Below are positions 42,126-43,528 of a stretch of DNA of 64,000 nucleotides, piece after piece. Within the stretch, counting starts at the first letter, position 1. Each line of letters opens with the position of its first letter. The translations under genes and the position numbers were made by a program. The DNA is from a phage. The notes under the pieces were generated by a model. That model saw only the letters and a program-made list of their open reading frames with translations. It was not told where the DNA came from and did not search any database. The stretch is from sequence record PZ154895.1, one strand, 5' to 3'.

Positions 42126-42198
42126 TGGGAATTAGCCAAGTTGGTAAGGCACTGGATTTTGATTCCAGGATGCAAAGGTTCGAGTCCTTTATTCCCAG
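42126..42198 (+). tRNA. tRNA-Gln (anticodon UUG)
   Basis: manual cloverleaf: 7-bp acceptor tgggaat/attccca, anticodon loop ttTTGat, T-arm GGTTCGAGTCC. Confidence 0.75.
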
Positions 42199-42199
42199 C

Positions 42200-42286
42200 G
42201 CGAGAATGGTCAAATTGGTAAAGGCACAGCACTTAAAATGCTGCGGAATGATTTCCTTGTGGGTTCGAGTCCCACTTCTCGCACCA
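42200..42286 (+). tRNA. tRNA-Leu (anticodon UAA), type II
   Basis: acceptor gcgagaa/ttctcgc + CCA, anticodon loop ctTAAaa, long variable arm. Confidence 0.75.
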
Positions 42287-42291
42287 AATTT

Positions 42292-42365
42292 GCGGATATC
42301 GTATAATGGTATTACCTCAGACTTCCAATCTGATGATGTGAGTTCGATTCTCATTATCCGCTCCA
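42292..42365 (+). tRNA. tRNA-Gly (anticodon UCC)
   Basis: acceptor gcggata/tatccgc + CCA, anticodon loop ctTCCaa, T-arm GTTCGATTC. Confidence 0.75.
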
Positions 42366-42411
42366 ATTTATGACTCGTCGTGAGACGCTCAGTTCTTTAT
42401 TAGGGACTGAT

Positions 42412-43020
42412 ATGCATTTTTATCTTTATAAAATAACAAATAAAATTAATAATAAAATTTATATTGGTGTGCATTCTACCGAAAATTTAGATGATGGATA
42501 TATGGGTTCTGGTAAATTATTAAAAAGAGCCCAAGACAAGTATGGTATAGAAAATTTTTCTAAAGAAATATTAGAGTATTTTGATGATAAAGAATCTATG
42601 CTTGAAGCCGAGAAAAATATTGTTACAGAAGAGTTTTTAAATAGACCAGATGTGTATAATTTAAAACTTGGCGGTGAAGGTGGATGGGACCACATAAATA
42701 ATTATCCTATGACAGATCAGCAACGCGAATTAATTTCATTGGGTGTTAAAAAGGCACATTCTAACGGAAAATTAAAAGGATGGTCTTCAAATGGATTAAT
42801 GAAGAATGGCTTTGCTGGTAAAACTCATTCTCAAGAAGCTAAACGTAAAATAGCAAAAGCAAACGAAGCAAAAGTTTCTGCGGATGAAAGAAAAAGAAGA
42901 ATAGAAATTTCTAAATTATATGATTTTTCTAAGCGTGGTGAATTATCTAAATATGCTAAGCATATTGGCGTAAGTCATACTCAAGCAAAAAGAATTCTAA
43001 ATCAAATTAACAATATATAA
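42412..43020 (+). CDS. segB: GIY-YIG homing endonuclease SegB (alternative start 42370)
   Basis: GIY-YIG motif HFYLYKITNKINNKIYIGVH; embedded in the tRNA cluster as in T4. Confidence 0.75.
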   Translation: MHFYLYKITNKINNKIYIGVHSTENLDDGYMGSGKLLKRAQDKYGIENFSKEILEYFDDKESMLEAEKNIVTEEFLNRPDVYNLKLGGEGGWDHINNYPMTDQQRELISLGVKKAHSNGKLKGWSSNGLMKNGFAGKTHSQEAKRKIAKANEAKVSADERKRRIEISKLYDFSKRGELSKYAKHIGVSHTQAKRILNQINNI

Positions 43021-43026
43021 ATATTT

Positions 43027-43116
43027 GGAGGCGTGGCAGAGTGGTTTAATGCACCGGTCTTGAAAACCGGCAGTCGCTCCGGCGACTCATAGGTTCAAAT
43101 CCTATCGCCTCCGCCA
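43027..43116 (+). tRNA. tRNA-Ser (anticodon UGA), type II
   Basis: acceptor ggaggcg/cgcctcc + CCA, anticodon loop ctTGAaa, long variable arm. Confidence 0.7.
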
Positions 43117-43121
43117 GTTTT

Positions 43122-43197
43122 GCTGATTTAGCTCAGTAGGTAGAGCAACTCACTTGTAATGAGAAGGTCGGCGGTTCGATCCCGTCAATCAGCACCA
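43122..43197 (+). tRNA. tRNA-Thr (anticodon UGU)
   Basis: acceptor gctgatt/aatcagc + CCA, anticodon loop ctTGTaa, T-arm GGTTCGATCC. Confidence 0.7.
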
Positions 43198-43198
43198 A

Positions 43199-43273
43199 GG
43201 CCCTGTAGCTGGAAGGTTCAAGCAAGCGACTCATAATCGCCAGATGGTGGTTCAATTCCACCCAGGGCCACCA
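43199..43273 (+). tRNA. tRNA with CAU anticodon (Ile-lysidine type or Met)
   Basis: acceptor ggccctg/cagggcc + CCA, anticodon loop ctCATaa; T4 carries an Ile tRNA of this type. Confidence 0.6.
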
Positions 43274-43282
43274 AATTAATTT

Positions 43283-43369
43283 GGGGAGTTATCCCGTAGA
43301 GGTAGCGGTGTGGACTGTAAATTCATTGTCATTGCGACTCGGGTGGTTCGACTCCATCACTCCCCACCA
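43283..43369 (+). tRNA. tRNA-Tyr (anticodon GUA), type II
   Basis: acceptor ggggagt/actcccc + CCA, anticodon loop ctGTAaa, long variable arm; manual fold, less certain. Confidence 0.5.
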
Positions 43370-43373
43370 ATTT

Positions 43374-43448
43374 GGATGTGTAGCTCAATGGCAGAGCGAT
43401 CGCCTGTTAAGCGATTGGTTATAGGTTCGAATCCTATCACGTCCGCCA
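43374..43448 (+). tRNA. tRNA-Asn (anticodon GUU)
   Basis: acceptor ggatgtg/cacgtcc + CCA, perfect anticodon stem atcgc/gcgat with loop ctGTTaa. Confidence 0.6.
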
Positions 43449-43452
43449 AATC

Positions 43453-43528
43453 CGAGGCATAGCTCAGAAGGAAGAGCAAGGACCTTCTAAGTCCTAGGTC
43501 GTAGGTTCGATCCCTACTGCCTCGACCA
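43453..43528 (+). tRNA. tRNA-Arg (anticodon UCU)
   Basis: acceptor cgaggca/tgcctcg + CCA, anticodon stem aggac/gtcct with loop ctTCTaa, T-arm GGTTCGATCC. Confidence 0.7.

Follow-up and report, generated by a model that had tools for sequence, protein, structure and literature searches.

A mosaic SegB-like endonuclease gene in the tRNA-Pro slot of an RB51/HY01-type tRNA gene cluster

Introduction

The tRNA gene cluster of phage T4 carries eight tRNA genes (Arg, Gln, Gly, Ile, Leu, Pro, Ser and Thr) together with segB, which encodes the free-standing GIY-YIG endonuclease SegB (NP_049745; PMC2330249). T4 SegB cuts tRNA 3' ends (GGTTCRANTCC...CCAR) just 3' of CCAR, including the end of tRNA-Gly of phage T2L, and its preferred cleavage site is a 27-bp sequence within T2L tRNA-Asn (PMC2330249). 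In T4 x T2L crosses, the inheritance of segB is nearly 100%, and T2L tRNA markers are lost (PMC2330249). The spread and loss of tRNA genes driven by SegB were published in 2008 (PMC2330249), and the concept was extended in 2026. Furthermore, SegB of phage T6 drives the rearrangement of the tRNA locus and is inactivated by mutation of Y17 and G19 of its YIG motif; the T6 tRNA-Tyr is the tRNA cleaved by the Septu defence system (PMC13096335). Here we analyze the tRNA gene cluster at positions 42126-43528 of a 64,000-nt stretch of phage DNA (sequence record PZ154895.1; the whole stretch is called the window below), which is interrupted between tRNA-Gly and tRNA-Ser by a SegB-like endonuclease gene (seg).

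GIY-YIG endonucleases of the I-TevI type possess an N-terminal catalytic domain and a separable C-terminal DNA-binding region. Genes related to seg of the window are present in Jiaodavirus (phages KP13MC5-5 and Mineola), where they stand directly 3' of tRNA-Gly(UCC), with clean empty and filled alleles. The closest known clusters are those of the RB51-type phages (RB51, HY01, RB68, AR1, RB18, PEC04). RB51 shares with the window the tRNA set, the tRNA order, the place of the open reading frame (ORF) and the junction sequences; in its annotation (FJ839693, GenBank 2009), the same nine tRNAs are listed in the same order, with a "truncated SegB-like protein" (ORF142) between tRNA-Gly and tRNA-Ser.

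Results

A SegB-like gene with two parents

The window belongs to a Tequatrovirus, and the region studied holds the clustered tRNA genes of a T4-like phage of the RB51/HY01 type. The ORF between tRNA-Gly and tRNA-Ser encodes a GIY-YIG domain (Pfam PF01541, 26.8 bits, cutoff 22.6) with the YIG motif (Y17-I18-G19) in a context identical to that of T6 SegB. The initial annotation, made from the sequence alone, had named this gene segB. The name fits its catalytic half only: in a BLASTP comparison with T4 SegB, 97 of 117 amino acids are identical, all within residues 15-131 of the 216-aa ORF, and nothing is aligned after them. As the C-terminal halves do not align, the protein is, judging from the alignment, not an orthologue of T4 SegB over its whole length, nor is it one by slot (here between Gly and Ser, in T4 between Ile and Arg, i.e., in the Tyr-Asn slot). 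Like T4 segB, it is a free-standing GIY-YIG gene within a tRNA cluster; the T4 gene differs in its leader, which has a strong hairpin, and in its unrelated C-terminal DNA-binding half.

Nucleotide identity in 50-nt bins divides the gene into two parts. The left half, from the first base after tRNA-Gly (42366) to ~42690, contains a 42-nt leader and the catalytic domain up to "...GGWDHIN" and is identical to T6 segB at 48-50 of 50 positions in every bin; from the ATG on, its DNA identity to T4 segB is ~97%. The right half (~42715-42986) has no alignable similarity to T4 or T6 segB. It is 81-93% identical per bin to seg of Klebsiella phage KP13MC5-5 (Jiaodavirus), the DNA-binding halves of the two proteins sharing 82% identity, and the last ~110 nt of the gene are 92% identical to seg of phage Mineola. 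The gene is a two-parent mosaic, with a T6-type leader and catalytic half and a Jiaodavirus-type linker and DNA-binding half; the identity is about 99% to T6-type segB for the former and 85-92% to Jiaodavirus seg for the DNA-binding half. The recombination breakpoint coincides with the domain boundary known from I-TevI-type enzymes, but seg is free-standing and not intron-encoded.

In T6 and LF73P3, the leader and the catalytic domain have 98-100% DNA identity to those of the window, and the cassette begins, as in the window, directly after "CCAATTT" at a tRNA 3' end; however, it lies between tRNA-Tyr and tRNA-Arg (the Asn slot) and encodes a T4-type C-terminal half. Jiaodavirus seg has the same leader and the same position after tRNA-Gly(UCC), whereas its catalytic half is only ~62-86% identical to that of the window at the DNA level, and tRNA-Pro is kept downstream (as a standard allele in Mineola and a divergent one in KP13MC5-5). 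The Seg proteins of the window and of KP13MC5-5 are colinear over their whole length, and the label "truncated" used for RB51 is therefore misleading.

The cassette stands in the place of tRNA-Pro

As the initial annotation had stated, the cluster contains no tRNA-Pro. ARAGORN finds none in the 64-kb window, and blastn searches of the window with the T4 and T2 Pro genes give only chance matches of at most 17 nt. The junctions show where the gene should be (the slash marks the insertion point or cassette edge). In Jiaodavirus, the empty allele (PhiKR1) reads Gly-AATT-Pro, with a 4-nt spacer (...GGATGCTCCAAATT/ACTCCGTATAGC...), and the filled allele (Mineola) has an insert of ~695 bp exactly in this Gly/Pro spacer, and the two tRNAs are intact. 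For Tequatrovirus, the sequence is Gly...CTCCAATTTAATTTA-Pro-CT-Ser in the empty allele (T2, T4) and Gly...CTCCAATTT/ATGACTCG...(seg)...TAAATATTT/GGAGGCG-Ser in that of the window, the cassette ending 6 nt before tRNA-Ser. It follows from this comparison that the cassette replaces the spacer and the whole Pro gene, i.e., that it occupies the exact tRNA-Pro slot. Its left edge lies 3 nt after the CCAA of a tRNA 3' end (tRNA-Gly ends with ...CTCCAA, and the cassette begins within 3 nt of it), as do those of the T6-type cassette after tRNA-Tyr and of the Jiaodavirus cassette after tRNA-Gly. SegB is known to cut at positions of this kind.

The cassette and tRNA-Pro exclude each other in Tequatrovirus. 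Gly-Pro-Ser is contiguous in 447 records vs. 56 records with the window-type gene. When GenBank phages were searched with a chimeric query (3' end of seg joined to T2 Pro), a coverage of at least 80% was reached only in 14 Klebsiella or Raoultella phages, and a second match was present in only 2 of the 613 matching records. In the public collection, there is practically no Tequatrovirus genome with both a window-type gene and a T2-like Pro gene.

The window, RB51, NR1, RB18 and CM8 do not differ by a single base at either cassette junction, and a single origin of the cassette is thereby indicated. Furthermore, all four of these carriers that have a Gln gene (window, RB51, NR1, RB18) share a distinct Gln allele, absent in T4, T6, T2 and LF73P3, which would be expected of flanking markers carried along with the cassette. 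In KP13MC5-5, the tRNA-Pro next to seg (1770-1845 of its locus) is strongly divergent from those of Mineola, PhiKR1, T2 and T4. Its divergence fits, and does not prove, a putative endonuclease target that includes the standard Pro gene.

Note that the final seg codons, together with the following 6-nt spacer (43005-43026, AACAATATATAA...), align with positions 1755-1780 of the KP13MC5-5 locus (AACAGTGCGTAG), the 5' end of its tRNA-Pro. The five differences are all G-to-A or C-to-T transitions. The end of seg may carry a relic of ~10 nt of a Pro gene; the sequence is short.

Endonuclease genes in the slots of missing tRNAs

The clusters of related phages are compared in Table 2. Endonuclease genes or remnants of such genes stand precisely in the slots of missing tRNAs in five architectures. 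Besides the Pro slot of the window, segB occupies the Tyr-Asn slot in T4, which is why T4 is without these two tRNAs, and the Asn slot in T6 and LF73P3; the ORF trna.1 takes the Thr slot in T2, and an ORF annotated as HNH endonuclease takes the Gln slot in CM8. With this slot pattern in other phages, the endonuclease-driven turnover of the tRNA repertoire suggested in the initial annotation is well supported; as mentioned above, the idea itself is not new.

The function of T2 trna.1 (T2_137; 2590-2991 of the T2 locus) is unknown, and no GIY-YIG domain is found in it. It shares, however, the DNA-binding C-terminal half with Seg of the window (41.5% identity; phrog_16521, E=1e-12), and is probably another endonuclease or the remnant of one. 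The HNH ORF of CM8, a Shigella phage (1247-1855 of its locus), matches the Pfam HNH model below threshold (17.3 bits, cutoff 21.4). CM8 is also without Pro, Tyr and Asn, having only six tRNAs and two endonuclease genes in its cluster. The annotated tRNA-Thr of T6 (2601-2675 of its locus) is not called by ARAGORN and is identical to tRNA-Thr of the window at only 68 of 76 positions; it may be a degenerate gene.

The tRNA set of the window does differ from the canonical one of T4 (Gln, Leu, Gly, Pro, Ser, Thr, Ile, Arg), with Pro absent and Tyr and Asn present, but it is the set annotated for RB51, and the arrangement is not an unusual one. Tyr and Asn had been regarded as additional. Relative to T4 this is correct; they are not additions made by the window phage, since T2 carries copies that are 100% identical. 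In fact, six of the tRNA genes of the window (Leu, Gly, Ser, CAU, Tyr, Asn) are 100% identical to those of T2. As the window retains the T2-type tRNA-Asn (75 of 75 positions), and T2L tRNA-Asn holds the preferred site of T4 SegB, the window phage is predicted to be a recipient for a T4- or T6-type segB.

Table 2. Order of tRNA and endonuclease genes in the window and in related phages, in the direction of transcription
Phage	Order (endonuclease genes and other ORFs in brackets)
Window	Gln Leu Gly (seg) Ser Thr CAU Tyr Asn Arg
T4	Gln Leu Gly Pro Ser Thr Ile (segB) Arg rnaD rnaC
T6	Gln Leu Gly Thr CAU Tyr (segB) Arg
LF73P3	Gln Leu Gly Pro Ser Thr CAU Tyr (segB) Arg
T2	Gln Leu Gly Pro Ser (ORF trna.1) CAU Tyr Asn Arg; no seg gene
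NR1, RB18	as the window, with His between Asn and Arg
CM8	(HNH ORF) Leu Gly (SegB-like) Ser Thr CAU Arg

A common haplotype of Tequatrovirus

The 2.6 kb around the cluster are 97.6% identical to Escherichia phage HY01 and 96.6% identical to RB51 and RB68, and partial matches of the cluster region are found in more than 1000 phage records. The translated ORF is identical to that of PEC04 along its 216 aa, and for HY01 and RB68 the 100% match covers residues 1-208; its C-terminal half is present at 95-100% identity in 56 records. The arrangement is a common Tequatrovirus haplotype, already deposited and annotated in dozens of public phage genomes. The alleles of RB51 and the window differ (Ser 85/90, Asn 63/75 and Arg 63/77 identical). 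Many of the changes in Asn and Arg (RB51 locus 2179-2334, window 43374-43528) are in stems, and the change in RB51 tRNA-Asn alters the sequence that matches the T4 SegB recognition site. RB18 and NR1 differ from the window in an extra tRNA-His(GUG) between Asn and Arg (NR1 locus 2251-2444, RB18 locus 2757-2950). It follows a spacer of ~115 nt, whereas the window has only 4 nt there, and no endonuclease gene stands alongside this indel.

Start codon and leader of seg

The initial annotation had placed the endonuclease directly after tRNA-Gly, counting 4 nt to the first ATG. A GIY-YIG gene is indeed there and the count is correct, but the ATG at 42412 is more likely to be the start than that at 42370. 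It is preceded by a Shine-Dalgarno-like AGGGA and corresponds in the alignment to the T4 SegB start (in T4 as in T6, the protein begins at the second ATG); counted from it, the residues Y17 and G19 of PMC13096335 fall on the YIG motif. A start at 42370, giving the 216-aa protein, is less likely: it has no Shine-Dalgarno sequence upstream, and Mineola and KP13MC5-5 have GTG at this position.

The 42 nt between the two ATGs are probably a non-coding leader. The same leader precedes T6-type segB after tRNA-Tyr (LF73P3, T6) and Jiaodavirus seg after tRNA-Gly, and its conservation between the genera (93% mean column identity) exceeds that of the coding sequence after it. Its predicted fold consists of two small hairpins (fold z about -2), the second of which (42389-42410) pairs the Shine-Dalgarno-like AGGGA. 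Across four distinct sequences, standard pairs fill 52 of 52 pair cells, and variation is confined to one side of three pairs. Full pairing with one-sided changes is compatible with a hairpin and no proof of it. Hairpin-controlled translation has been reported for T4 segB (PMC2988022), and the leader hairpin of the window would be compatible with a similar control, again without proving it. The possibility that the leader is the decayed 5' half of tRNA-Pro (it shares GCTCAGTT with the D-arm) was rejected, as the same leader precedes T6-type segB and Jiaodavirus seg.

At the other end of the gene, 4 nt before tRNA-Ser, a T4 late-promoter motif (TATAAATA, 43016-43023) lies over the stop codon. 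The window contains 22 copies of this motif, with ~10 expected by chance; its function at this site is doubtful, because the transcript would start inside tRNA-Ser.

The nine tRNA genes

The nine tRNA genes, with all their anticodons and limits, had been found by manual folding, and ARAGORN run on the whole window gives exactly these, all on the + strand, and no others (Table 1). The Rfam tRNA family (RF00005, gathering score 29 bits) supports eight of the nine at 59-74 bits. tRNA-Tyr, with its long variable arm, was not reported by Rfam at the gathering score; with relaxed thresholds its best match is tRNA-Sec, at 29.9 bits, below threshold. All nine genes are functional-looking, and the codons they read (CAA, UUA, GGA, UCA, ACA, AUA, UAY, AAY, AGA) are in heavy use in this AT-rich phage.

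Table 1. Features of the tRNA gene cluster and its surroundings (positions in the window)
Feature	Position	Strand	Evidence and remarks
tRNA-Gln (UUG)	42126..42199	+	ARAGORN; Rfam 67.4 bits; host-like anticodon arm
tRNA-Leu (UAA)	42200..42286	+	ARAGORN; Rfam 59.3 bits; 87/87 identical to T4, T2, T6
tRNA-Gly (UCC)	42292..42365	+	ARAGORN; Rfam 65.8 bits; 74/74 identical to T4, T2, T6
seg cassette leader, 42 nt, conserved, probably non-coding	42370..42411	+	comparison with T6-type segB and Jiaodavirus seg
ORF, GIY-YIG	42370..43020	+	216 aa from first ATG; between tRNA-Gly and tRNA-Ser, first ATG 4 nt after tRNA-Gly
free-standing GIY-YIG homing endonuclease gene, "SegB-like" mosaic	42412..43020	+	202 aa and stop; Pfam, phrog_314 E=2e-54, sliding identity, protein alignment
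tRNA-Ser (UGA)	43027..43116	+	ARAGORN; Rfam 62.6 bits; 90/90 identical to T2
tRNA-Thr (UGU)	43122..43197	+	ARAGORN; Rfam 70.6 bits; 72/76 identical to T4
CAU-anticodon tRNA, Ile2 (lysidine) type	43199..43273	+	ARAGORN; Rfam 59.9 bits
tRNA-Tyr (GUA), long variable arm	43283..43369	+	ARAGORN; 87/87 identical to T2, 86/87 to T6
tRNA-Asn (GUU)	43374..43448	+	ARAGORN; Rfam 74.1 bits; 75/75 identical to T2
tRNA-Arg (UCU)	43453..43528	+	ARAGORN; Rfam 68.1 bits; T2-type allele, 75/76 identical to T2, only 48/76 to T4
116-aa ORF, unknown function, between tRNA-Arg and rnaD	43545-43895		phrog_3355 E=5e-54
rnaD homologue	43895-44011	+	blastn against T4 rnaD, 87%
rnaC homologue	44018-44156	+	blastn against T4 rnaC, 98.6%
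strong terminator-like hairpin followed by T run, after rnaC	44207..44230	+	

The tRNA described at first only by its CAU anticodon, which was read correctly, has an Ile2-type body. Among 5,413 E. coli genomes, its nearest relatives are CAU-anticodon genes annotated as tRNA-Ile in RefSeq; of the K-12 tRNAs, ileX is identical at 58 of 76 positions and metT and metU at 51 of 77. The anticodon stem-loop (GCGACTCATAATCGC) and the acceptor positions 1-5/68-72 (GGCCC/GGGCC) are identical to those of ileX. The pairs C4-G69 and C5-G68 are acceptor-stem determinants for lysidine synthetase TilS. By these features, the tRNA is predicted to be an AUA-reading tRNA of the Ile2 type, not a tRNA-Met, and the functional equivalent of T4 tRNA-Ile; the annotators of RB51 had already called it Ile. 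With only 47 of 75 positions identical to T4 tRNA-Ile, it is a different gene. The closest E. coli tRNA (62/76) is found on the chromosome of strain M19 (151-379 of its locus) in a tight CAU-Lys(UUU)-Thr(UGU) tRNA cluster that looks mobile-element- or prophage-derived.

Between the tRNA-Gln allele of the window and those of T4, T2, T6 and LF73P3, there are 8 differences, every one of them in the anticodon stem-loop. The window allele has another stem, in which the changes compensate each other, and its loop positions 32/38 are U/U, like in E. coli glnU (C/C in T4, T2, T6 and LF73P3). This allele could result from hitchhiking with the cassette or from selection by an anticodon nuclease.

Downstream of the cluster

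The cluster is followed by homologues of T4 rnaD and rnaC, neither of which matches any Rfam family. The 116-aa ORF before them is absent in T4, where rnaD comes directly after tRNA-Arg, and present in T2, RB51, LF73P3 and CM8. The hairpin after rnaC is likely the end of the transcription unit, and the whole stretch from the tRNAs to this terminator appears to form one such unit.

Discussion

The best explanation of these data, and one that we regard as likely, is that the window carries an RB51/HY01-type cluster in which a mosaic seg gene, a selfish homing endonuclease, has replaced tRNA-Pro. The home of the Jiaodavirus seg lineage is the 4-nt spacer between tRNA-Gly and tRNA-Pro. The enzyme would cut alleles that bear Pro and are free of the endonuclease, at the Gly/Pro junction or close to it, its swapped DNA-binding half directing it to this junction or to the Pro gene of endonuclease-free phages. 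In a co-infected cell, double-strand-break repair from the endonuclease-carrying genome would then copy in the cassette and its flanking markers; tRNA-Pro would be lost, the target of the enzyme would be removed or split, and the carrier would become immune. The same process at other slots would lead to the differing tRNA sets of T4, T6, T2, CM8 and the window phage. The enzyme is expected to be active, since in its catalytic half it is virtually the same as the enzymes of T6 and T4, which are active. More tentatively, and with somewhat less than even confidence, we suggest that seg is a naturally retargeted SegB, in which recombination at the domain boundary has moved the target from tRNA-Asn to the Gly/Pro junction and which thus erases tRNA-Pro from rivals.

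The loss of tRNA-Pro is not accompanied by a fall in demand. Among the Pro codons of the window ORFs, CCA accounts for 41% and CCT for 43%. With CCA still so frequent, losing tRNA-Pro(UGG) seems to be no adaptation but a cost that a selfish element has imposed.

Several observations weigh against homing as the cause of the replacement. The activity, target and mobility of the mosaic protein are all inferred. Unlike in I-TevI-type enzymes, a PDB sequence search with the C-terminal half gave no relative, and its Pfam matches are limited to NUMOD3 (just under the cutoff) and a helix-turn-helix motif, also below cutoff. Searches for a Tequatrovirus intermediate, in which Pro would follow seg, found none: a pattern scan of IMG/VR gave none, the IMG/VR search for related loci gave only relatives at 49% identity or less, and the chimeric query found the junction in GenBank phages from Klebsiella and Raoultella only. 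As no such intermediate was found, loss of Pro at insertion and loss by a later deletion are indistinguishable. Furthermore, absence of Pro is no requirement for the endonuclease, because in Mineola a related cassette coexists with an ordinary Pro gene. The linkage with the Gln allele is based on only four carriers and four non-carriers. The loss of tRNA-Pro was not prepared by a change in codon usage and may be costly. Finally, the annotators of RB51 called the ORF "truncated".

This last label would suit a different explanation, in which the endonuclease gene is an inert passenger or a decaying remnant and the tRNA differences arise from plain deletion and recombination among similar tRNA genes. 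Indeed, T6 is without Pro and Ser and has no endonuclease in that slot, CM8 is without Tyr and Asn and has no ORF there, and NR1 and RB18 differ from the window by tRNA-His with no endonuclease nearby; some tRNA gains and losses thus proceed without a resident endonuclease gene. We consider it unlikely, though, that this accounts for the window cluster. The ORF is intact, matches its Jiaodavirus homologue over the full length and keeps the catalytic motif of active SegB, and its C-terminal half is highly conserved across the 56 records carrying it. Nor would a passenger explain why endonuclease genes or their remnants are found exactly in the missing-tRNA slots of five architectures, and the erasure of T2L tRNA markers by T4 SegB is an experimental result (PMC2330249). 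Still less probable is a cluster shaped mainly by host tRNA-cleaving defences and codon demand, with the endonuclease serving chiefly as a recombination and amplification engine for useful tRNAs: T6 SegB does amplify tRNA-Tyr, which leads to escape from Septu (PMC13096335), the window retains a tRNA-Tyr nearly identical to that of T6, the Gln, Asn and Arg alleles differ among phages mainly in the anticodon arm, and the cognate A-ending codons are heavily used in the window ORFs, but neither the exact insertion in the Pro slot nor the mutual exclusion of cassette and Pro is accounted for in this way, and the frequency of CCA shows that the demand for tRNA-Pro has not fallen. Selection by defence systems (Septu and others) surely acts too, more as a complement to the homing model than as a substitute for it.

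Databases and literature already contain both the arrangement and the concept, and the finding as stated in the initial annotation adds nothing new to them. The fresh element is the explicit two-parent mosaic of the endonuclease, together with the slot-by-slot pattern across phages, a modest and testable extension. The literature searched contains no mention of the mosaic seg variant. At least five different endonuclease insertions have been found in this cluster, each coinciding with a different missing tRNA. If the retargeting proposed here is true, the T-even tRNA cluster would be an arena of competing endonucleases, each deleting a different tRNA gene; to our knowledge, it has not been explicitly described as such before. 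Provided that it is active, the mosaic enzyme would exemplify how a GIY-YIG nuclease is retargeted in nature through domain swapping, and would be a simple, testable case of selfish elements reshaping the translation toolkit of a virus.

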